A DNA stretch of 25,042 nucleotides from Candidatus Omnitrophota bacterium (GCA_041652675.1 JBAZGV010000002.1:1-25042); one strand, 5' to 3'. Counted from the stretch's first letter, positions 1,319 through 15,896 are shown. Translations and numbers: made by a program. The notes: generated by a model not told the origin, from the sequence alone.

Positions 1319-2119
1319 TTATTTTTGGCACTTAGGGCAAAAATAAGTGCCTCTCCCTCCCAAAACATTCCTTTTTATCAGAGCCTTACAGGCAAAACAA
1401 GGCTTGCCTTCACGGCCATAAACTTTGTGATACTTTATATATTTCCCTTTTTCTCCGGATACCCTCACATAATCATCTACGGAAGAGCCGCCATAGCTTA
1501 TAGCTTCGGCCAAAATATCCTGCATTGAGTTAAATAAAAGCTCTTTCTCTCTGTTTAAAAGTTCGCTTGCTTTACGCTCTGGATTAATTTTAGCACGAAA
1601 TAGGATTTCTGCAGCATAAAGATTGCCAATACCGGAAATAAATTTTTGGTCCATAAGCAATGGCTTGATTTTAGTTTTTTTCACAGCCAGCATATCTTTA
1701 AATTTATTCAAGGTTAAATCTTTTGGCTCGGGGCCCAAATTTCGGATAAACTTAAACTCTCTCCAGTTATCCAGGAGCCTAAGCTCGCCGAATAACCTCT
1801 GATCATTAAAATCCAGGCTCTTGCCGTCGGATAAATGAAAGATTACTCTCGCGTTCTTGCCCTTCCCCGGATAAACAAGCTGGCCGGTCATCTTCAAATG
1901 AATAACCAAAGATTTAGCGCTGGATAATTCCAGAACCAGAACCTTTGCGCAGCGCAAAACCTTATTAATCCTTACCCCGCTTAATCCCTGTTTAAATTTT
2001 TGCAAAGAAGGTTCGCGAATTACTTTAGAGTTATAAACGCAAACTTCGCTGATCTTTTTCCCTATAATAACTTTTTCTAAATCACGTTTTATAGTCTCAA
2101 CTTCCGGTAGTTCCGGCAT
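1319..2119 (-). CDS. mutM: Formamidopyrimidine-DNA glycosylase / AP lyase
   Basis: N-terminal PELPEV, HLKMTG, H2TH motif GIGNLYAAE, and C-terminal zinc finger C..C...RGTYFCPKCQ. True start is probably the second Met (2119). Confidence 0.97.
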   Translation of the reverse strand: MPELPEVETIKRDLEKVIIGKKISEVCVYNSKVIREPSLQKFKQGLSGVRINKVLRCAKVLVLELSSAKSLVIHLKMTGQLVYPGKGKNARVIFHLSDGKSLDFNDQRLFGELRLLDNWREFKFIRNLGPEPKDLTLNKFKDMLAVKKTKIKPLLMDQKFISGIGNLYAAEILFRAKINPERKASELLNREKELLFNSMQDILAEAISYGGSSVDDYVRVSGEKGKYIKYHKVYGREGKPCFACKALIKRNVLGGRGTYFCPKCQK

Positions 2120-2129
2120 CATCGCCCCT

Positions 2130-5100
2130 TTACGGTTTTTTTATACCTTTGTGGTATGACTGCAAAGACTTAACATTTAAACCCTTCTTTAATAATATCT
2201 CCATGCCGCTTACTGTGGCCGAAGCCGCGGATATGCTTGTAATATAGGGTATATTATATAGTATTACCTGTGAACGGATTCTCACTTCATCCTGACGAGG
2301 AATTCTACCTGAAGGGGTATTAATCACTAATTGTATCTTTCCATCCTTCATTAAATCCAAAATATTCGGCCTTCCCTCGGCAATTTTAGGCAATACCGTA
2401 ACCTTAATATTGTTTTTCTCCAGGGCTTCGGCTGTACCAATAGTAGCATAGATATTAAACCCTAAATCTTCCAGCTTCTTAGCGATAAAAAGCACCTGCC
2501 GCTTGTCTCTATCGCGCACAGAAATAAACACATTGCCTTTCTTGGGCAGTTTCTGGCCCGCAGCAAGCTGGCTCTTAATATAAGCCAAACCAAAATCTTT
2601 ATCTATCCCCATAACTTCTCCGGTGGATTTCATCTCAGGCCCTAAAATAACATCTACCCCGGGAAAGCGGTTAAAAGGAAATACCGACTCTTTGATTGCG
2701 AAATATTTAGGTATAATCTCTTTGGTAAAACCTAAATCCTTGAGTTTTTTACCCAACATAACCTTAGTAGCCAGCTTGGCTAACGGTACGCCTATCGCTT
2801 TTGAGACAAAAGGCACGGTTCGAGACGCCCGTGGATTTACCTCTAGTATATAGACCTTGTCATCTTTGACCGCATACTGCACATTCATTAAACCCACGAC
2901 ATTTAATTCTTTAGCCATCTCTTGTGTCGCAAGGCGTATCTTATGCAGGATATCCTCTGATAAAGTATATGTGGGAAGAGACATGGCCGCGTCTCCTGAA
3001 TGAACTCCGGCATATTCAATATGCTCCAATATTCCGCCGACAACGAACGATTCGCCATCGCCGATTAAATCCACATCAACCTCGATGGCATCCTCTAAGA
3101 ACTTATCAATTAACACCGGATGCTCGCCAGAAACTTCGGCCGCCTCTTTTATAAATTGCTCCAGAGCGCTTTCATCATAAGCTATCTCCATAGCCCGCCC
3201 ACCTAGGACATAGGAAGGCCTGACTAATACAGGATAACCTATTTTCTTAGCTACTTCTTTCGCTTCTTCAAAATTAAAAACGGTGCCATTTTCAGGCTGC
3301 AGAAGATTTAATTTATGGAGCATCTGCTTAAAACGCTTACGGTCTTCGGCAATATCAATGCTCTCAGCTGAAGTCCCTAAAAGATTAACCCCTGCCTTAC
3401 GTAATGATACAGCTAAGTTTAATGGTGTTTGCCCGCCAAACTGCACAATTACACCCATAGGTTTTTCAAGCTCAACGATATTCATAATATCTTCGAAAGT
3501 AAGCGGCTCAAAATATAGCCTATCAGAAGTATCATAGTCTGTCGAGACAGTCTCTGGGTTACAATTAACCATAATACTATCAACGCCTTCATCTTTTAAA
3601 GCATAGGCCGCGTGGCAACAACAATAGTCAAATTCAATACCCTGCCCGATGCGGTTAGGGCCACCGCCTAAAATCACCACTTTTTTATTCTTGCTTGGCC
3701 TAGCCTCATCAGCTGTTTCGTAAGTAGAATAATAGTATGGCTGCTTAGCCGCGACTTCGCCGGCGCATGTATCAACTAACTTATATACTGCTTTTATATT
3801 TTGTTTCTTGCGCGATTCCCGCACTTTATCCTCCTTGGAATTTAACATAAACGCGAGCTGCCGGTCAGAAAAGCCATTCTCCTTAGCAGCCTTTAACAGT
3901 TCAAGGGGCAATTTTATCTCTTCTTCGGGTTTGTTATTTCTGTATTTCATTATCTTTCCCTCAACTTCAACCAACTCCTTCATATTATCAATAAACCAAC
4001 GGTCAATATGCGATAATGCGTAGATTTCATCCACGGATAAACCTGCTTTAAGCGCGTAACGAATATAAAAGATCCTCTCGTCGTTAGGCATGCGGATCTT
4101 ATCGCGGATCAACTTAACCAGAGAATTATCGGCTTTCTTCAGCTGTTCATCGGTGATTTTATCTTTACCATCCGCGCCAAAGCCAAAACGCGATATCTCA
4201 ATAGAACGAATGCCTTTCTGAAAAGCCTCCTTAAAGTTCCTCCCGATAGACATTGCCTCTCCAACTGCCTTCATCGATGTATTAAGAATGCGCTCCGCGC
4301 GAGGGAACTTTTCAAAAGTAAAACGGCAAATTTTAAATACACAATAATCAACCGTAGGCTCAAAGAACGACGCGGTCTTGCCCGTAATCTGGTTCATTAC
4401 TTCAGGGAGGGTAAACCCAACTGCTAATTTTGTGGCTACGCGCGCGATTGGAAAACCGGTTGCCTTAGAAGCTAAAGCTGATGAACGGGAAAGCCTTGGA
4501 TTAACTTCAATGATTACAATGCGGCCGTTATCAGGATTCTGGGCAAACTGAATATTCGCGCCTCCTCCGGTAATGCCAATCCTGCGGATAATCTTCTTGG
4601 ATAAATTCACGAAATTATTATACTCCTCCGCGGTCAAAGTCTGCGCGGGAGCAACCACAATACTATCTCCGGTATGCACGCCCATTGGATCCACATTCTC
4701 CATAGAAGTGATCATAATTACGTTATCCACGCAATCACGCATAACCTCAAATTCAATCTCCTTCCAGCCTAAGACTGACTGTTCAACCAAAATTTGATGC
4801 ACCGGGCTGGCTTCCAAGCCCTTAACCAAAAACTTTTCAAGTTCCTCGTGATTGTAAGCAATTGACCCTCCGCTTCCTCCTAAAGTATAGGCCGGCCTTA
4901 AAATTAACGGAAAGCCTATCATTAAACCAATCTTCATTCCTTCTTCTAAAAAAGTAGCTATGCCGCTTTTGGGCACATCAACACCTATCTCCTGCATCGC
5001 TTTTTTAAAAAGTTCCCTATCCTCGGCGCAAGATATCGCGTTTACCGAAGCGCCGATAGATTCTACCCCATACTTCTTTAAAATACCCTGTTTCATTAAA

Positions 5101-5402
5101 AAGAAGGCGAGATTTAAGCCTGTCTGCCCTCCTAAAGTCGGCAGTATCGCGTCCGGCCGCTCCCGAGCTATAATCTTAGTTACAATCTCGACGGTAAGAG
5201 GCTCAATATAAGTAACATCCGCTAATCCGGGATCAGTCATAATAGTTGCCGGGTTAGAATTAATAAGTATGGTAAAATACCCCTCTTCCCTTAACGCCTT
5301 GCAGGCCTGAGAACCGGAATAATCAAATTCGCAGGCTTGCCCTATGACGATAGGCCCGGAACCAATCATTAAAACTTTTTTAATATCTTTTCTGCGCGGC
5401 AT
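2130..5402 (-). CDS. carB: Carbamoyl-phosphate synthetase large subunit
   Basis: 1090 aa; [17 protein letters not shown], two ATP-grasp halves ([18 protein letters not shown]; [16 protein letters not shown]), [10 protein letters not shown], and a C-terminal MGS-like domain. Confidence 0.99.
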
Positions 5403-5419
5403 AAATTAACTCCTTCTTA

Positions 5420-6496
5420 TTAATGGCTCAGTAGCATTTTCATGAATCTTCTAAAGACATTATTAACTTCTTTGAACCCCGGGCAAACCGGTAAATACTG
5501 TATCCCTAAAATCTTTAATTTCTTGCTCTCAAACTCTTCCAGAGTACGGTCATTTAAATTATAACCGGTGATTTTTATCTCTTTAATCTTAAGCAACGAA
5601 GCAGCATCTATTACATAGGCATGATTCTGCGCGGTAATCTCTCCTTTAAAAACAGCGGGATTCTGCACCGGATAGTTTACGCCGCGATGGCCTGTTTTTA
5701 ATTTATGAGTTTTCACACCCAAAGTGCCGGCTAAAACTAAATTTCCCGTGGCTATGCCAAGAATGGGTATTTTGCCGATTAATGGCTTTAAATTTTTGGC
5801 AACCTCCTCTAATTCCGGCGCCTCTTCCGGGCCGTCTGATATAATTAAACCCGCGGGTTTCAGTTTTAAGATATCTTCCGCGTTCGTGTTATAGGGGAGA
5901 ATTGTTAATGAGAGCCCCAAAGGCTCCAACTGGCGGATAATGCTATTGGTTAGGCCAAGATCTAAAATCGCGACTTTTTTCTTACCCCTCACCCCTAGCT
6001 CTTTCTTTTTTTCAATAGAAATTTTGGCAAGCACCTCCGCGGGCTTATTTTTACGAAAAGCTTGGATCTTAGCAAGGAGCTCTTTTGTTTCAAAACAATC
6101 CGTGGAGACTATTCCTAACATAGAACCTTTTTGCCTTAAATGCACTGCCAACGTACGCGTATCTACTCCGGACAGAGTAATAAGATTATGCCTTTTAATA
6201 AAATCATCAAAACTCTCTTTAGCCTGCCAATTAGAGAATACGCGCGACTTCTCTTTGATAATTAAACCAGCCAACCAAACATTGCTTGATTCGTTAAATT
6301 TTGGGGCACAACCATAATTACCGATTAAAGGATAGGCCAAAACTAAGATCTTTCCCGCGTTAGCCGGGTCAGTGATCATCTCCTGATAGCCGACTACTGC
6401 AGTATTCATTATCGCCTCTCCAGTTCTTTCGCCTTTTAAACCCTCAACTTCACCCAGAAAACTCTTTCCATCTTCAAGCATAAGTATTCCCTTCAT
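5420..6496 (-). CDS. carA: Carbamoyl-phosphate synthetase small subunit homolog with a degenerate glutaminase active site
   Basis: LMLEDG, GYQE.ITDP, YPLIGNYG, GVDTR.L...LR..G, GHRG.N.PV and ITAQNH identify CarA, and it is adjacent to carB. Catalytic positions are substituted (GIATGNL instead of GICLGHQ; QYLPV instead of QxHPE). Confidence 0.95.
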   Translation of the reverse strand: MKGILMLEDGKSFLGEVEGLKGERTGEAIMNTAVVGYQEMITDPANAGKILVLAYPLIGNYGCAPKFNESSNVWLAGLIIKEKSRVFSNWQAKESFDDFIKRHNLITLSGVDTRTLAVHLRQKGSMLGIVSTDCFETKELLAKIQAFRKNKPAEVLAKISIEKKKELGVRGKKKVAILDLGLTNSIIRQLEPLGLSLTILPYNTNAEDILKLKPAGLIISDGPEEAPELEEVAKNLKPLIGKIPILGIATGNLVLAGTLGVKTHKLKTGHRGVNYPVQNPAVFKGEITAQNHAYVIDAASLLKIKEIKITGYNLNDRTLEEFESKKLKILGIQYLPVCPGFKEVNNVFRRFMKMLLSH

Positions 6497-6567
6497 TACT
6501 ATCCCTCCACTTTTGCCTTTATTCTGCCTATTCTATAGGTAAAATACTCCACTTATACCCTTAAATC

Positions 6568-6639
6568 TGCCCCTGACAGGAGTCGAACCTGTACCACTAG
6601 CTTCGGAGGCTAATGCGCTATCCATTGCGCTACAGGGGC
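6568..6639 (-). tRNA. tRNA-Arg(CCG)
   Basis: GCCCCTG acceptor pairs with CAGGGGC + discriminator A; D arm GCGC/GCGC; anticodon arm TTAGC-CT[CCG]AA-GCTAG; T arm ACAGG-TTCGACT-CCTGT. CCA is not encoded. Confidence 0.97.
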
Positions 6640-7878
6640 CTAAAATAAATTCAGCTGTTCTTCTTTATTCTTTTTAGCTTCGTCTTCGCCTAATATAGAG
6701 ATCGTCCCATATTCACCATCAAATCCGGCTAGGAGATTAACTCTACCTTCACGCACACTCAAAACTCCTTCGGCAACTTTTGGCGGCAATCCTTTTAAAA
6801 GATCATCTTTTGGCGCGCGCATTAATATATCAAACTCTGTTCCGAATTTAGATAAGTAACTATGATAATCCCTCTCTACTCCGACAGACCCCTTACCTAC
6901 GCCTTTTGCGTCGGCTATTATTTCTTCCAAAGGAATAAGATGTTTAAAAGGTATGGAATTATCCGGCTTAAAACCTTCTGGCCTGTCTGCTAACTTTTCT
7001 ACACGGTTTACCACGCCGATAGTAACTAACTTACCGCAGAGAGTGCATATGCCATTATGCTCTTTTGTTTCTTTTGGTGACCACCTTATTTTGCAAAGCC
7101 TATGGCCATCATAATGATATTTGCCTTCTTCAGGAAAAAATTCTATCGTATAAAGAAGCCTTTTCCTGTCTTTTGTCTTTAATACCTCACGTATAGTTTG
7201 GTAATCTAATTCACAATTAAATACATTCGCTTCCCGCCCGATCTTTTGCGGTGAATGCGAATCGCTATTAGAGATAAGCGTGAACTTATCCAACGCGCTT
7301 ATGCGCCAGTTCATTGCCGGATCAGATGAAAGCCCGGTCTCCAAGGCAAAAATCTTTGGCGTTTGCTCCTCAAAACAATCTTCAATTCTGTCAAATCCGG
7401 ACATCGAACCAAATAAACTGAACCAAGGGGTCCAAATATGCCCGGGGACAATCATACAATTTTCGTCAATATCAAAGACAATGCGCGCCAACTCTGCGGC
7501 ATCTAACCCCAGAATCGGCCTACCGTCGGAAGCCAGGTTACCTATACGCCCTAGCTTATCATTAATCTGATCTACGATTTTAAAAGAAGGAGCGAAAATT
7601 AGATTGTGAATCCTATAGGTCTTGCCTTTTTTAGAGTAAATACTGCTTATTTCCGCGGTTAAAATAAAATTAATACCATTGTATTTATATAAACCGTTAG
7701 CGCAATCTTCTAAATTATTTTTCAATTCCTCGAGCCATAAATGGTGCGTAAAATCTCCGGTACCCATTAGAGTGATACCCTTAAGCTTAGCCCACTCGCT
7801 TAAGTTTTTTACATCCATATTGCGGCTGGTGGCTCGGGAGTATTTAGAATGAATGTGAAAATCGGCTATGAATTCCAT
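6640..7878 (-). CDS. Endonuclease Q family (PHP-domain, TIGR00375-like) DNA repair endonuclease
   Basis: ADFHIHSKYS, GTGDFTH, GHIWTPWFS, ETGLSSD, SNSDSHS..KIGRE, GKYHYDGHR.C and a C..CG zinc motif match the EndoQ/YqxK family pattern. There is no UvrD fusion. Confidence 0.88.
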   Translation of the reverse strand: MEFIADFHIHSKYSRATSRNMDVKNLSEWAKLKGITLMGTGDFTHHLWLEELKNNLEDCANGLYKYNGINFILTAEISSIYSKKGKTYRIHNLIFAPSFKIVDQINDKLGRIGNLASDGRPILGLDAAELARIVFDIDENCMIVPGHIWTPWFSLFGSMSGFDRIEDCFEEQTPKIFALETGLSSDPAMNWRISALDKFTLISNSDSHSPQKIGREANVFNCELDYQTIREVLKTKDRKRLLYTIEFFPEEGKYHYDGHRLCKIRWSPKETKEHNGICTLCGKLVTIGVVNRVEKLADRPEGFKPDNSIPFKHLIPLEEIIADAKGVGKGSVGVERDYHSYLSKFGTEFDILMRAPKDDLLKGLPPKVAEGVLSVREGRVNLLAGFDGEYGTISILGEDEAKKNKEEQLNLF

Positions 7879-9143
7879 TTATTAACTTTCCCCTGGCAGA
7901 TTGTATATTCAACAAAACCTTTGAGGGTTTTGTTGATAAAACTTGAGTTTTTGGACTTTGATAAAAAATTCTCCTCCTTGACTATCCATTCTTTTTCCGC
8001 AGAGACTATAACTATATCCGCGTCTTTACCTATACTGAGGCAGCCCTTATCTATGCCTAAAATGCGGCTGGGGTTAATTGCCATCTTTTCCACAAGGCCG
8101 CTCCAACTTAAAATACCTCTTCCGATTAACTCTGTGATCGCAACCGCTAATTCCGTCTCTAATCCGGTTACTCCGAATTCCGCTCGCTCAAACTCTATCT
8201 CTTTTTCATTCTCCGTATGTGGGGCGTGATCCGAAGCAATAACATCAATTGTCCCGTTTGCTAAGCCCGCCCTTATCGCTTCAACATCTTCCTTGCTACG
8301 CAAGGGAGGATTCATTTTAAAATTTGTATCAAACCCTAGAACCATCTCTTCATTAAATGTAAAATAGTGCGGTGCGGTTTCACAGGTTAACTTAACTCCC
8401 TCTTTCTTAGCGCGGGCGATTATCTCTAACGACTCTTTACAGCTTACGTGCGCGATATGCATAGCCGCGCCTGTTTTTTCCGCTAACGCAATATCCCGGG
8501 CAACTCTTTTATATTCCGATTCTTTAGATATTCCCTTTAAACCTAAGCGGGTAGAAGTAAAACCCAAGTTCACTACCCCGGAGTCTGATAATTTCTTATC
8601 TTCAGAATGGCAGATAACCGGAATTTTTGCCTTTTGCGCGCATTCTAAGGCCTCTAACATTAGTTCCTCTGAATCAACCGATGCCCCATCATCAGAGATG
8701 GCCACCGCCCCATTTTTCTTAAGCCCGGCAACATCAACTAATTCCTTGCCTTGGCGGAGTTTAGTAATAGCCGCGCAAATGAAAACATTTGCCTTAGCGC
8801 TTTTAGATATCGCGTCTTTTAAAAATTTGATATTCTCTATGGAATCAATCGCCGGATCAGTATTAGGCATCGCTAAAAGAGTGGTAACTCCGCCGTGCAG
8901 AGCGGCTTTGGTCGCGCTACAGATAGTCTCCTTATCTTCTCTACCCGGTTCCCTTAAATGCACATGCATATCAACACAACCGGGGATCACAATTTTACCG
9001 CCTGCCTCAATTATGTTATCCGCGCCTGCCTTAATATTTTTTGCGACTTTAGATATTTTGGAACCATCAATTAAAATATCACTGACTTCATCTAAGTTGT
9101 TTACCGGATCTATAACACGCCCGTTCTTAATTAGTATTTTCAC
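7866..9143 (-). CDS. pyrC: Dihydroorotase (type I, multifunctional-complex type)
   Basis: VDMHVHLREPG, AISDDG, HSED, HIAHVS, KMNPPLR and SDHAPH; metal ligands look intact. Start placed at GTG 9143 (MKILIKNGRVIDP); the ORF track extends it to 9176. Confidence 0.97.
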   Translation of the reverse strand: MKILIKNGRVIDPVNNLDEVSDILIDGSKISKVAKNIKAGADNIIEAGGKIVIPGCVDMHVHLREPGREDKETICSATKAALHGGVTTLLAMPNTDPAIDSIENIKFLKDAISKSAKANVFICAAITKLRQGKELVDVAGLKKNGAVAISDDGASVDSEELMLEALECAQKAKIPVICHSEDKKLSDSGVVNLGFTSTRLGLKGISKESEYKRVARDIALAEKTGAAMHIAHVSCKESLEIIARAKKEGVKLTCETAPHYFTFNEEMVLGFDTNFKMNPPLRSKEDVEAIRAGLANGTIDVIASDHAPHTENEKEIEFERAEFGVTGLETELAVAITELIGRGILSWSGLVEKMAINPSRILGIDKGCLSIGKDADIVIVSAEKEWIVKEENFLSKSKNSSFINKTLKGFVEYTICQGKVNKWNS

Positions 9144-9218
9144 CCCCGCACCTTCCCTCAATTCATTACCCCTCACCTTTAAATATTTAATTATGAATAT
9201 TTTAGAAGGTGCGGGGGT
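9142..9218 (-). repeat. Perfect 14-bp inverted repeat (9142-9155 / 9205-9218) in the pyrB-pyrC spacer
   Basis: ACCCCCGCACCTTC at 9142-9155 is the exact reverse complement of GAAGGTGCGGGGGT at 9205-9218; 49-nt loop. Confidence 0.92.
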
Positions 9219-9226
9219 TCATCTTT

Positions 9227-10165
9227 CTAAATATTGGCTAATTTGTCCTGTGTCTGTGCCACTAAAAATAATACCGCCATGCGCACAGCGATTCCATTAG
9301 TCACCTGTTCTAAAATCACTGAATTAACGCCGTCGGCAACTTCACTTGACATCTCAATCCCGCGGTTAATCGGCCCGGGATGCATGACTATAATGCCCCT
9401 CTTCGCTTTCTTTAACCTATCAACTGTAATACCAAATTGCTTAAAGTATTCCAACTGCTTAGGAAAAGCTGTTTCTCCGTCCCGCTCAAATTGCATGCGC
9501 AGAACATTCACCGCGTCTGCCTTCGCTAAAGCTTCTTCTATCTCATTAGTTACAACTACGCCCATATCTTCTATCCCCACAGGAATAAGTATTTTAGGCG
9601 CGCATAAAGTTACCTTAGCGCCTAATTTAAGCAAGCCCCAAATATTCGAACGGGCTACCCGTGAATGCGCGATGTCGCCTACGATACTCACGTTTAAACC
9701 TTCAATTCTGCCTAACTTCTCTTTTAATGTAAATATATCCAGCAGCGCCTGCGTAGGATGTTCATGCCAACCATCTCCAGCATTAACCACGCTAATATGC
9801 AAGTTACGGGCAAGCATTGCCGCAGCCCCGGAAGCGTTATGGCGCATAACAATAATATCAGCTTTCAAGGCTTCAATATTTTTACCGGTATCAATCAGGG
9901 TTTCTCCTTTTTTGACACTGGAGGTTTCGGTAGCGATATTAATTACATCCGCGGACAGCCTTTTAGCGGCCACTTCGAAGGAGACGCGCGTGCGCGTAGA
10001 AGGTTCATAAAATAAGTTTACTACAGTCTTACCGCGTAATGCGGGAACTTTTTTTATCTCCCGGCTGGATACTTCTTTAAATGATTCAGCAGTAGAGAGG
10101 ATTAACTCTAATTCTTCCTTATTTAGCTCTTCCAACCCCAGCAAATCTTTTCTTATCCAAGTCAT
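9227..10165 (-). CDS. pyrB: Aspartate carbamoyltransferase catalytic subunit
   Basis: [42 protein letters not shown]. Confidence 0.99.
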
Positions 10166-10707
10166 TTTATCTCTTTATTAATAATAACTACTTCGTCCAC
10201 GCCATCTGTTTCCTCTAACCTGACCTCTACGGATTCATCCTTAGATGTAGGGATATTCTTTCCGGCATAATCCGCGCGAATTGGCAATTCCCTGTGCCCC
10301 CGGTCCACTAAAACCGCTAATTGGATGGACTTTGGCCTGCCGAAATCAATCAAAGCGTCAAGCGCGGCCCTTATCGTTCTTCCCGTGAATAAAACATCAT
10401 CTACTAAAACAAGATTTTTTCCATTAATATCAAAATCTATTTCAGTTTTACGCACTAAAGGTTGGCCGGAGACTAAAGCTAAATCATCACGGTATAAAGT
10501 TATATCCAGGGCTCCGCTTAAAACACCGGCTCCTTCAATATTTTTGATGCGCTCCGCGAGGCGCTGGGCAAGGTATACCCCGCGATTTCTTATGCCTATA
10601 AGGCAAAGGAATTCCGTACTCTTGTTTTTCTCAAGAATTTCATGAGCAATACGCGTAATTGCCCGCGCAACTCCCTCTTTATCTAAAATTTTAACCTTTT
10701 CTTTCAT
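10162..10707 (-). CDS. pyrR: Bifunctional pyrimidine operon attenuation protein / uracil phosphoribosyltransferase
   Basis: [22 protein letters not shown] motif [29 protein letters not shown]; first gene of the operon. Confidence 0.98.
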
Positions 10708-10720
10708 CTGCTACCTCATT

Positions 10721-10753
10721 AAAAAAATACCCCTGGCTTTTCTTGCCAAGGGT
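10721..10753 (-). terminator. Intrinsic attenuator terminator in the pyrR leader
   Basis: Minus strand ACCCTTGGC-AAGAAAA-GCCAGGGGT followed by A and T7, directly before the pyrR SD (GAGG). Confidence 0.88.
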
Positions 10754-10787
10754 GATATTTTTATTATTCTCTCTTGCATTATATTTA

Positions 10788-10819
10788 CCTTGCCAGCTTC
10801 ACAGAGCTGGGCTTAAAGG
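10788..10819 (-). promoter_or_regulatory. PyrR-binding stem-loop (anti-antiterminator)
   Basis: CCUUUAAGC-CCAGCU-CUGUGA-AGCUGG-CAAGG has the CUUUAA element, a CNGNGA hexaloop and a CCUU/AAGG basal stem, as in known PyrR binding loops. It lies upstream of the terminator and pyrR. Confidence 0.88.
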
Positions 10820-10838
10820 CCCTTTATCTAATTGCTTA

Positions 10839-10866
10839 ATTATAACATCACTGGCGCAATTGTCAA
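10839..10866 (-). promoter_or_regulatory. sigma70-type promoter of the pyr operon
   Basis: TTGACA (10866-10861) - 16 nt - TATAAT (10844-10839), with extended -10 TGn. Confidence 0.85.
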
Positions 10867-13461: not shown

Positions 13462-15896
13462 TTATTCTTCTACGCTTTCAGCAATTACCGGAGCAACACA
13501 AGAAACATGGTCCTTATCCTGCAATTTTATTAAACGCACGCCTTGAGCAGACCGTCCGGTTTCACGAATATCTTTTATGGCGCAGCGTAAGAAAATTCCG
13601 TTCTGCGTGATAACCATCAGCTCATCATTATCATTTACAGTCTTTAAATTTACTGCCTCGCCATTTTTATCTGTGACTTTTATGTTAATTACCCCTTTAC
13701 CGCCGCGGCTAGTCAGCCGGTATTCATCAACAGTAGTGCGCTTGGCAAAACCTAAAGTAGTAACTGTCAATATGGCTGCTCCCTTTTGAGGAATAACCAT
13801 ATCAATAACCTCATCTTTCTTACCTAAAGAAATGCCCCTTACGCCGCGCGCGCCTCTGCCCATATCGCGCACTTTTTCCTCGGAAAATCTTATCGCCTTA
13901 CCTTGACGAGTGCCGATCAGTAATTCCTGCTTGCCGTCAGTCATCTCTACTCCGATTAGCTCGTCATCTTTATCTAAAGTAATCCCGATAATCCCGCCTT
14001 TTCTGGGATTACCATAAGCGTCAAGCCGAGTCTTCTTAATCTGGCCTAACTTAGTAGCCATAACCAGATATTTATCGCCGACAAATTCCTTTACCGGCAT
14101 AGTTGAGCTGATCTTAGCGCCTGCCTCCATCTCCACCAGATTAATTATAGCTTTCCCCTTGGATGTGCGGGTAGCTTGAGGTATCTCATAGACTTTGAGC
14201 CAATGCACCTGGCCCTTACCGGTAAAAATCAAAAGATAGTCTTTGGTGGAAGCAATAAAAAGATGTTCGATAAAATCTTCGTCTTTGAGGTCTGCTCCGG
14301 TCGCGCCTGTGCCGCCGCGTTTTTGCTTACGATACGCGCTAACTGGCAGGCGCTTAATATATCCTCCATGGCTTACAGTTACAACAACATCCTCCTCGGC
14401 AATAAAATCTTCTACCGCCAATTCCTCCACCTCATCAACTATATCAGTCCTGCGTTCATCGCCGTATTTTTTCTTTAAATCTTCTAACTCTGTTTTAATG
14501 ATAGCTTCGATCTTCTTCTCTGAGGCCAAAATCGCCTGGCACAACTCAATTTTCTTTAAGAGCTCGGCGTATTCTGCTTCAAGCTTGTCCTGTTCCAGGG
14601 CGGTTAAACGCTGCAGCTGCATCTCCAAGATTGCTTGAGATTGAATTTCGGAAAGCTCAAATTCTTTCATCAAATTTATCTTCGCGGCTTCGACACTCTT
14701 GGAAGTTTTAATTACCTTAATAATACGGTCAATAAACTTAAGCGCGATTTTCAGCCCTTCTAAAATATGCGCGCGCTTCAAGGCCTTATCCAATTCAAAT
14801 TGCGTCCTGCGCCGGATAATGAGCTTACGATGTTCGATATAACAAAGAAGTACCTGTTTTAAATTTAAAACCCGCGGCCGGTTTTCCACCAAGGCGAGCA
14901 TGATAATGCCAAAGGTGGTTTCTAACTGGGTATGTTTAAAAATTTGGTTTAAATCAGCTGCGGCTCAATGTCGCGTTTCAATTCCACTACAATACGCATA
15001 CCGTCTTTATCCGACTCGTCACGGATATCCGAGATACCCTCAATCTTTTTGTCATCAACTAAACCGGCGATGGCTTCAATAACCGAAGATTTCTGCACCT
15101 GATAGGGAATTTCAGTAATAATGACCAGGTCTTTTCCGTTCTTCTGATGCTCTACAGTCGCCTTAGCGCGAACAGTGAGCTTACCGCGGCCGGTATTATA
15201 AGCCTCCTTGATCCCTGCCTTTCCGCAAATTAACCCCCCGGTCGGAAAATCCGGGCCCTTAATATAGCGCAGCAGGTCTTTAATTTCCGCTCCGGGATTA
15301 TCTAATATATGGATAATCGCATCCGCTACTTCATTGAGATTATGCGGCGGTATATTCGTTGCCATACCTACGGCAATTCCGCTGGAGCCATTCACCAAAA
15401 GATTGGGAAGCGCCGCGGGTAATAATAACGGCTCTTTCAGGGAAGCGTCAAAGTTTGGGCCAAAATTCACTGTATCTTTGTCAATATCACCGAGCATTTC
15501 ATCAGAAATTCCCGCAAGCCGCGCCTCGGTATACCTCATTGCGGCAGGCGCATCGCCATCAACCGACCCGAAGTTACCCTGTCCGTCAATTAAAGGATAG
15601 CGCAAAGAAAAATCTTGCGCCATTCTTACCAGGGTATCATAAATGGCCATATCTCCGTGCGGATGGTACTTACCCATAGTTTCACCGACGATACGGGCGC
15701 ATTTTTTGTATGGCTTAGAGTGGTCAAGATTAAGGTCCTGCATAGCATAAAGTATTCTTCTATGCACGGGCTTAAGCCCGTCTCTGGCATCCGGCAGCGC
15801 GCGCCCGACAATTACACTCATCGCGTAATTTAGGTAAGCATCCTTAACTTCTTCTTCAATGCAAATCGGGATTATTTTTTCGTTACGAGTATACAT
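13462..15896 (-). CDS. gyrA: DNA gyrase subunit A, interrupted by a single-base frameshift near 14950 (ORF pieces 14949-15896 and 13462-14901)
   Basis: The N-part has [22 protein letters not shown] and catalytic AAMRYTE. The C-part has the GyrA box QKRGGTG and beta-pinwheel repeats. One extra T at ATT|TAA restores ...[26 protein letters not shown]..., giving about 811 aa. Confidence 0.95.

Follow-up and report, generated by a model that had tools for sequence, protein, structure and literature searches.

We analysed a stretch of 25,042 nucleotides from a genome of Candidatus Omnitrophota bacterium (GCA_041652675.1 JBAZGV010000002.1:1-25042), hereafter the window, which carried a cluster of pyrimidine genes. 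The cluster contained a peculiar homologue of carA, the gene encoding the small carbamoyl phosphate synthetase (CPS) subunit, located immediately upstream of carB, the gene encoding the large subunit. The small subunit combined a CPSase_sm_chain domain with a class I glutamine amidotransferase fold and lacked the Cys-His-Glu triad of the glutaminase; we refer to this gene as tl-carA (triad-less carA) and to the CarB proteins encoded next to such genes as linked CarBs. The original prediction, made from the DNA sequence alone, had described a full-length CarA with its whole glutaminase site erased and had proposed a candidate ammonia-dependent bacterial CPS. The evidence presented below pointed to an enzyme of this kind, in which tl-CarA would serve as a non-catalytic subunit.

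The tl-carA gene had the intact reading frame and the Shine-Dalgarno sequence that had been claimed for it (Table 1), and its translation was uninterrupted over 358 amino acids. In an alignment to the TIGR01368 family the protein was a full-length CarA homologue that had lost the triad. It scored 325.5 bits, which was above the curated threshold (cut-off 307.35), and 329.2 bits against PRK12838 (cut-off 221); for comparison, canonical CarAs of Omnitrophota scored 500-540 bits against TIGR01368. PF00988 was recognized at residues 5-130 (E = 4.9e-41) and PF00117 at residues 177-334 (E = 5.1e-27). The GHRG.N.P, TAQNH and PG motifs named in the original prediction were retained as well.

The correspondence to E. 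coli CarA numbering was taken from HMMER alignments to the solved structures 1t36_B and 1c30_B, and the codons were verified separately. The predicted replacements of Cys269, His353, Ser47, Gly243, Gln273 and Lys202 were all borne out by both (Table 1). For Glu355, the predicted change to Val stood in part: the acid was gone, and no carboxylate occupied its position under either alignment, but Val337 took this position only in the gapless reading. When aligned with canonical CarAs, Glu355 corresponded to a one-residue deletion and Val337 was placed opposite Ala356. In the subclade to which the window belonged, His272 was replaced too (by Asn252). Judged by these residues, tl-CarA is a CarA by homology that fails the defining catalytic feature, and so it would not be a glutamine-hydrolysing member of the family. 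GlmS, encoded in the same window, retained its catalytic Cys as had been stated (N-terminus (M)CGIIGY), and the triad was intact in a TrpG-like amidotransferase (class I) encoded by contig C74 (GVCLGHQ...HPE).

Table 1. Coordinates of genes, signals and substituted codons in the window (changes are given as E. coli residue to window residue)
Feature	Position	Strand	Remark
fpg	1319-2122	(-)	downstream of carB
carB	2130..5402	(-)	full-length CPS large subunit, 1090 amino acids
Arg265 to Val265, CarB	4608-4610	(-)
Cys232 to Thr232, CarB	4707-4709	(-)	gate residue
tl-carA-carB spacer	5403-5419	(-)	17 nucleotides, contains AAGGAG
tl-carA	5420..6496	(-)	CarA homologue without the triad
Pro360 to Phe341, tl-CarA	5474-5476	(-)
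Val337, tl-CarA	5486-5488	(-)	Glu355 in the gapless reading
His353 to Leu335, tl-CarA	5492-5494	(-)
Gly293 to Val273, tl-CarA	5678-5680	(-)
Cys269 to Ala249, tl-CarA	5750-5752	(-)	nucleophile; codon GCC
Gly243 to Glu224, tl-CarA	5825-5827	(-)
Ser47 to Ala45, tl-CarA	6362-6364	(-)
Gln273 to Leu253, tl-CarA		(-)
Lys202 to Thr183, tl-CarA		(-)
Ribosome-binding site GGAGGG	within 6497..6520	(-)	7 nucleotides upstream of the tl-carA ATG
tRNA-Arg(CCG)	6568..6639	(-)	between endoQ and tl-carA
Endonuclease Q (EndoQ) homologue	6640..7878	(-)	PHP-type; match 5zb8, E = 1.6e-57
pyrC	7866-9176	(-)	upstream pyrimidine gene of the cluster
pyrB	9227-10165	(-)	upstream pyrimidine gene of the cluster
pyrR	10162-10707	(-)	upstream pyrimidine gene of the cluster
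Leader region ahead of pyrR	10719..10866	(-)	promoter, PyrR-site-like element, hairpin
Terminator-like hairpin	10753-10729	(-)
Sigma-70-like promoter	10866-10839	(-)	consensus
gyrA, first listed part	13462-14901	(-)
gyrA, second listed part	14949-15896	(-)

A constrained clade of triad-less CarAs and their CarB partners

The triad was missing from all 120 of the closest database homologues of tl-CarA (65-87% identity) and likewise from 16 of 16 orthologous loci drawn from 15 related genomes; therefore, the pattern could not be attributed to chance. At position 269 the 120 homologues had Ser (99), Ala (16) or Gly (5), and the three residues swapped freely between close relatives (80-87% identity). 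Position 353 was occupied by Tyr, Ile, Leu, Cys and others, and position 355 was never acidic. The subclade of the window was the most degraded, with GIATGNL in place of the GISTGHQ found in most clade members. All members had lost Ser47 and replaced Gly243 with Glu, and most of them retained Asn311 and His312. The residues invariant within the clade were Ala33-Val34-Val35 (E. coli Ser35-Met36-Thr37), Ala45-Asn46, Lys49, Glu224, Val273 (Gly293), Tyr275 (His295), Glu321 (Gly339), Phe341 (Pro360) and Glu343. From this pattern, the former glutamine site looked remodelled rather than merely eroded.

Matches to TIGR01368 in 40 related genomes formed two classes, one at approximately 500-534 bits with canonical motifs and one at approximately 290-347 bits. 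Among the 45 CarA sequences that were extracted, a low score always meant that the triad was absent and a high score that it was present. In a survey of 401 Omnitrophota genomes that were at least 85% complete, where the classes were set by score and not residue by residue, approximately 15-18 genomes had a low-scoring CarA only, and most of these were 1.0-1.3 Mb in size. Roughly 30 genomes of the survey had two CarA matches and 51 had none.

Selection was measured in four genome pairs as omega, the Nei-Gojobori ratio of non-synonymous to synonymous divergence (dN/dS). The values for tl-carA were 0.11, 0.08, 0.14 and 0.165; in the same pairs, carB ranged over 0.035-0.064, and pyrC and fpg over 0.075-0.13. 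Thus, the triad-less gene was plainly under purifying selection, somewhat looser than that on carB. All 16 orthologous loci, like the genome matches, were free of frameshifts and stops. Neutral decay beside an active paralogue, an outcome raised in the original prediction, was excluded by the low omega, the intact frames and the existence of relatives with tl-carA as the sole copy. Within the clade, the mean entropy of the residues predicted to contact CarB was 0.30 bits versus 0.97 bits elsewhere in tl-CarA, and none of 10,000 permutations was as low (p < 1e-4). Conservation was relaxed at the two positions that once held Cys and His, with 0.79 and 2.5 bits versus 0.0 and 0.36 bits in canonical CarAs.

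The product of the adjoining carB scored 1631 bits against PRK05294 and aligned without gaps with E. coli CarB up to approximately residue 341, hence a common numbering was used. We compared 16 linked CarBs with 24 CarBs that adjoined canonical Omnitrophota carA genes. Four substitutions, C232T, I234M, R265V and C346F, were present in 16 of 16 linked and 0 of 24 canonical proteins, and T249V and L218F discriminated fully between the two groups as well. Ala251, Ala314, His243, Asn283 and Asn301 were unchanged in the linked CarBs. The CarB of the window itself had Met234 and Phe346 besides Thr232 and Val265, with Ala251 and Ala314 of the gate retained. In published work on E. coli, C232, A251 and A314 form a triangular gate in the tunnel for ammonia (PMC8674909; PMC4655335), and this Cys-Ala-Ala gate is retained in human CPS1 (PMC4655335). 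The coupling to an intact carB had been predicted correctly, since the gene was intact and started 17 nucleotides downstream of tl-carA, but the partner was not an ordinary CarB: it belonged to a distinct clade and had a changed gate.

Modelling of tl-CarA together with CarB residues 1-560, one of the checks proposed originally, predicted a complex with a score of 0.91, and the best of three controls scored 0.00. Of 78 solved complexes, 51 attained this mark, as did 2 of 108 mismatched pairs, and the pass may reflect memory of 1JDB-like CPS structures. The model set tl-CarA residues 337-341 and 343 against CarB residues 254-266 and, therefore, would place Phe341 and Val265 at the interface. 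The "perforated tunnel" mutant of E. coli described by Kim and Raushel in 2004, with changes at alpha-Pro360, alpha-His361 and beta-Arg265, reportedly lost the use of glutamine and kept that of ammonia. The counterpart of E. coli Gly293 in CPS1 is Gln318, which closes off the ancestral tunnel, and a different way of entry has been proposed for that enzyme (PMC4655335).

Of the 150 best matches in an exhaustive search of 50%-identity representatives, approximately 64 were full-length CarAs without the Cys. Their sources included Limnochordia, Planctomycetota and Sporomusaceae, and all of them were labelled "glutamine-hydrolyzing". The CarA and CarB trees were built from prokaryotic sequences only, and the sample of the CarA tree was biased by the Cys-less query. 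In this tree, the tl-CarAs of Omnitrophota formed a clade (support 99) remote from the resident canonical CarA (support 95). The Cys-less sequences were scattered, and the well-supported branches required at least 10-12 changes. A recent duplication of the resident carA was rejected, as tl-CarA was only 38-40% identical to the canonical Omnitrophota CarA and the two were in separate well-supported clades.

Thr232 together with a hydrophobic residue 265 was also found in CarBs adjoining Cys-less CarAs from three other sources, namely a contig whose CarA clustered (at least 90% identity) with a Planctomycetota-labelled protein, the contig of a Limnochordia-labelled protein, and the NCBI assembly GCA_002426645. 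These CarBs and the linked CarBs of Omnitrophota were united in one clade (support 99). The possibility that Thr232 and Val265 were a general convergent result of the Cys loss was tried on four shallower Cys-less lineages, the contig of the fourth being too short for a CarB reading, and was rejected. P0142 and P0191 (both pyrB-pyrC-carA-carB operons) and P0253 (a 2.3 kb contig on which the neighbouring genes had no family assignment) all kept Cys232, and Arg265 was kept in two of these three readable CarBs. Therefore, the gate change was not automatic after the loss of the Cys.

Canonical CPS genes and sole-copy species

A search of the genome for a second, active carA, as the original prediction had proposed, found a canonical copy, and tl-carA was nevertheless no relic. 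Contig C40 of the same assembly (L003 1-1664, L059) carried the 3' end of carA, the N-terminal half of carB and purF, in this order. The last 58 codons of this carA (..QFHPEASPGPHD..) included His353 and Glu355, the carB half encoded 552 amino acids, and the purF product started with MCGIF (Cys1). Contamination was rejected as the origin of C40: its carB half was 86% identical to the copy in genome G004 of the same genus and was its sister in the tree, and its GC content was 39% compared with 41% for the window. In G004, the corresponding contig (C43, L058 926-18082) had the gene order glutamine synthetase-like, Fis-like, gltB, gltD, an open reading frame (ORF) of 859 amino acids, pyrG, carA, carB N-half, purF. 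This block looked like a "glutamine-type" gene cluster.

The canonical carA and the carB N-half were strongly constrained (omega of approximately 0.04, with dS saturated). Their sequences indicated that an apparently active glutamine-type paralogue existed here and that the organism would not be ammonia-only. The original claim that this lineage made carbamoyl phosphate from free ammonia was too broad for the present genome with its C40 genes. The C-terminal half of carB was not found in any of ten sampled genomes that held both CPS systems, whereas most genomes with a canonical carA and a split carB but without tl-carA did carry it. Both systems without this half occurred in G000, G004, G005, G008, G011, G013, G014, G020, G022, G023 and G035. 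Half-molecules of CPS can reportedly perform the whole reaction (work of Guy and Evans).

Three genomes of the same genus, G001 (8 contigs), G007 and G010, which were 95-96% complete, had the tl-carA-carB pair as their sole CPS; no canonical carA was found in them, including by direct protein search. All three possessed both argF (ornithine transcarbamoylase) and pyrB (aspartate transcarbamoylase), and none had arcC. Carbamate kinase was accordingly rejected as another source of carbamoyl phosphate, its search having given only weak matches to other amino-acid kinases. With a single CPS, with pyrB and argF, and with no arcC, the pair must therefore make carbamoyl phosphate in these species. 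Judging from gene content, they would provide the strongest genomic argument for a working CPS with no need of glutamine hydrolysis.

Additionally, no match to glutamine synthetase (PF00120) was found in G001 and G007, and none to CTP synthase (PyrG) in G001, G007 and G010. The only PurF of these three genomes was a paralogue encoded beside purM that started with MSGIFGV, with Cys1 replaced by Ser. The Ser1 PurF paralogue was also present in the genome of the window (contig C88, L064 1360-2775, minus strand) and altogether in each of the five genomes checked within the genus (L061-L063 and L065 besides L064). Its presence alongside tl-carA-carB suggests a wider glutamine-free enzyme set.

Candidate function of the triad-less CPS

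Given the purifying selection on tl-carA, its adjacency to carB and predicted binding to CarB, and the species where it was the sole copy, the best reading was therefore a CPS that uses ammonia and has a small subunit without a catalytic role. We assigned a probability of roughly 0.65 to an ammonia-dependent CPS in which tl-CarA provides structure or a tunnel but no catalysis. The pair would make carbamoyl phosphate from bicarbonate, two ATP and free ammonia, and tl-CarA would be retained to serve, structurally and in the ammonia tunnel, a full-length CarB that belongs to a distinct old CPS lineage. In this organism, the pair would act from a pyr cluster headed by a PyrR-site-like leader; where sister species have lost the glutamine-type genes, pyrimidines and arginine would both depend on this pair alone. 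Ammonia might enter through the remodelled former glutamine pocket, with its invariant Glu224, Glu321 and Tyr275, or at the subunit interface near Phe341 and Val265, with Val273 narrowing the old tunnel much like Gln318 of CPS1. Both ammonia as the nitrogen donor and these routes are what we infer. In E. coli, ammonia-dependent synthesis reportedly persists when Cys269 is mutated, when the tunnel is blocked by mutation, and in the large subunit by itself (Rubino 1986 and Huang & Raushel 2000, through PMC6245113 and PMC4655335).

Several points weigh against this proposal. Most clade members have Ser at the position of Cys269 and keep His272 and Gln273, and some ligand binding would be possible in these members. 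The Km of the E. coli enzyme for ammonia is poor. In the genome of the window, carbamoyl phosphate might have a source other than tl-carA-carB, and the sole-copy status in the relatives rests on metagenome-assembled genomes. Finally, the gate signature is a trait of one old CarB clade and could be mere history.

Instead of using bulk ammonia, tl-CarA might dock another nitrogen donor or an ammonia-producing protein, a role of adaptor that we considered unlikely. It would explain the remodelled look of the former pocket, which is surrounded by invariant residues of the clade's own (Ala45, Asn46, Lys49, Glu224, Tyr275 and Glu321), and a candidate partner could be the conserved LOG-like (TIGR00725-like) ORF located directly upstream of tl-carA in related genomes. 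However, this ORF was missing from the window, where tl-carA was intact nonetheless. Moreover, the only genes that always accompanied tl-carA-carB in the loci examined were those of EndoQ and Fpg, both DNA-repair enzymes, and the former catalytic positions varied freely.

A regulatory pseudoenzyme that binds glutamine or another metabolite unhydrolysed and thereby tunes CarB would be compatible with the ammonia-using CPS, and we gave it a slim chance. Most members carry GISTGHQ, Asn311 and His312, and glutamine reportedly remains able to bind to the C269S enzyme of E. coli and to stimulate a partial reaction of the large subunit. On the other hand, His272 and Gln273 were absent from the subclade of the window (Asn252 and Leu253), and all members lacked Ser47 and had Glu in place of Gly243 of the oxyanion loop. 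With these last two changes, the canonical glutamine pocket would therefore be badly altered.

It was highly improbable that tl-CarA hydrolyses glutamine via a relocated or different nucleophile. Although 99 of the 120 homologues had Ser in place of the nucleophile and His312 was conserved, the protein of the window had Ala there, Ala, Gly and Ser were interchangeable among close relatives, His353 was variously replaced and Glu355 was gone; no Cys or Ser elsewhere in the tl-CarA alignment was invariant in the clade. Just as improbable was a decaying relic with the canonical carA of C40 doing all the work: the canonical carA, carB N-half and purF were indeed present and strongly constrained, but the omega of tl-carA (0.08-0.165) was like that of pyrC and fpg, frames were intact in 16 of 16 loci, the clade persisted across the phylum and was the sole copy in G001, G007 and G010, and the canonical system had no carB C-half in genomes having both.

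The favoured ammonia-dependent CPS can be compared with three known systems. It resembled the type II CarA-CarB of E. coli (1JDB, 1BXR, 1C30, 1T36) in having two separate adjacent genes, the same two-domain small and four-domain large subunits and the same predicted interface, and it kept the tunnel residues Pro358, Gly359 and Asn311 of the small and Ala251 and Ala314 of the large subunit. It differed by the loss of the triad and the changes of Ser47 to Ala, Gly243 to Glu, Gly293 to Val, His295 to Tyr and Pro360 to Phe in the small subunit, and of Cys232 to Thr, Ile234 to Met and Arg265 to Val in the large one.

Human CPS1 (5DOT/5DOU), a vertebrate CPS I that matched tl-CarA at E = 1e-42, is an ammonia-using CPS that likewise keeps an inactive glutaminase-like module, and a bulkier residue also replaces E. 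coli Gly293 in it (Gln318, compared with Val273 in tl-CarA). In contrast to the two genes found here, CPS1 is a single fused polypeptide and depends on N-acetylglutamate. Furthermore, only the Cys is replaced (Ser294) and the gate Cys is kept in CPS1 (PMC4655335), whereas here the whole triad was gone and the gate residue was Thr. By analogy, the pair probably works like CPS I, and the original description of a convergent CPS I-like state was a fair one as an analogy. The pair may have originated independently of CPS1.

The pair was similar to the pyrimidine-specific, Bacillus-type pyrAA-pyrAB of PyrR-controlled pyr operons in its location after pyrR-pyrB-pyrC, in the PyrR-site-like leader and in the presence of a second CPS elsewhere. 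Bacillus PyrAA is an active glutaminase, whereas the copy in the pyr cluster was the dead one here, and the second system consisted of a canonical carA and half a carB among genes for glutamine synthetase and glutamate synthase, pyrG and purF.

A broader reading of the same data, for and against which we saw equal odds, is that tl-carA-carB represents an old, separate bacterial CPS lineage that is ammonia-dependent by nature and belongs to a glutamine-free nucleotide set with the Ser1 PurF. This lineage would be present in Omnitrophota and in the three other sources (Planctomycetota-related, Limnochordia and GCA_002426645). Its linked changes, namely the erased triad, alpha-Pro360Phe, alpha-Gly293Val, beta-Cys232Thr and a hydrophobic beta-265, would re-route or re-gate the entry of ammonia. 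In small genomes that gave no match to glutamine synthetase, the glutamine-free set would fully replace the cluster of glutamine synthetase, glutamate synthase, pyrG, carA, half carB and purF.

Textbook classification treats prokaryotic CPS as glutamine-dependent and the ammonia-dependent CPS I as an animal invention for the urea cycle. In the library searched, no paper was found on a bacterial Cys-less CarA or on an ammonia-dependent bacterial CPS. If the proposed function is correct, an ammonia-type CPS arose separately in bacteria, databases misname such genes as "glutamine-hydrolyzing", and the carbamoyl phosphate step ought not to pass through glutamine when the metabolism of anaerobes with small genomes is modelled. 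The pair would also represent a natural experiment on the CPS ammonia tunnel, with changes that hit published gate residues and residues reportedly mutated in tunnel studies of E. coli, and a hypothesis that is testable with two genes in E. coli.

Gene neighbourhood and related loci

The PyrR-binding-site-like leader of the cluster matched RF00515 at 46.7 bits, below the gathering threshold of 54. In the 15 related genomes, the conserved order was pyrR-pyrB-pyrC-endoQ-(tRNA-Arg, LOG-like ORF)-tl-carA-carB-fpg-PEMT-like. EndoQ is a conserved passenger of the cluster and no part of the CPS; the endoQ and fpg genes flanked tl-carA-carB as conserved passengers across the order. The tRNA-Arg(CCG) gene began right after the endoQ stop codon, 71 nucleotides upstream of tl-carA, and translated remnants suggested a tRNA-Arg at the same place in the relatives. 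Elsewhere in the window, gyrA consisted of two ORFs 47 nucleotides apart, which matched positions 2-309 and 327-796 of the GyrA profile; the gene may be split, or a frameshift or faulty assembly may account for the two ORFs.

Independent, shallower Cys-less CarAs, with Gly at position 269, were located in Bacillus-type pyrB-pyrC-carA-carB(-pyrK-pyrD) operons of a Sporomusaceae metagenome-assembled genome and of another metagenome contig (L068 2287-7535, L069 1302-10098). Loss of the glutaminase seems to recur in pyr-operon CPS. On the Planctomycetota-related contig, a protein of 311 amino acids with NAD_synthase and GMP_synt_C domains only was encoded just upstream of the Cys-less carA (L055 7011-7946); this protein may represent a GMP synthase that lacks the glutaminase domain.

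The loci L051 10457-11482, L052 6417-7439, L053 1658-2803, L049 9894-11366 and L050 5614-7077 concerned a further arrangement. In a different family of this order, flavodoxin-like and LOG-like ORFs occupied the place of tl-carA in the same pyr cluster and were followed, with no small subunit, by a full-length CarB of a third clade with Gln261 and Gln265. G034 (94% complete) had no CarA whatever, and in G021 and G031 an orphan carB of this kind stood immediately behind a gene for a Ser1 PurF-like protein.

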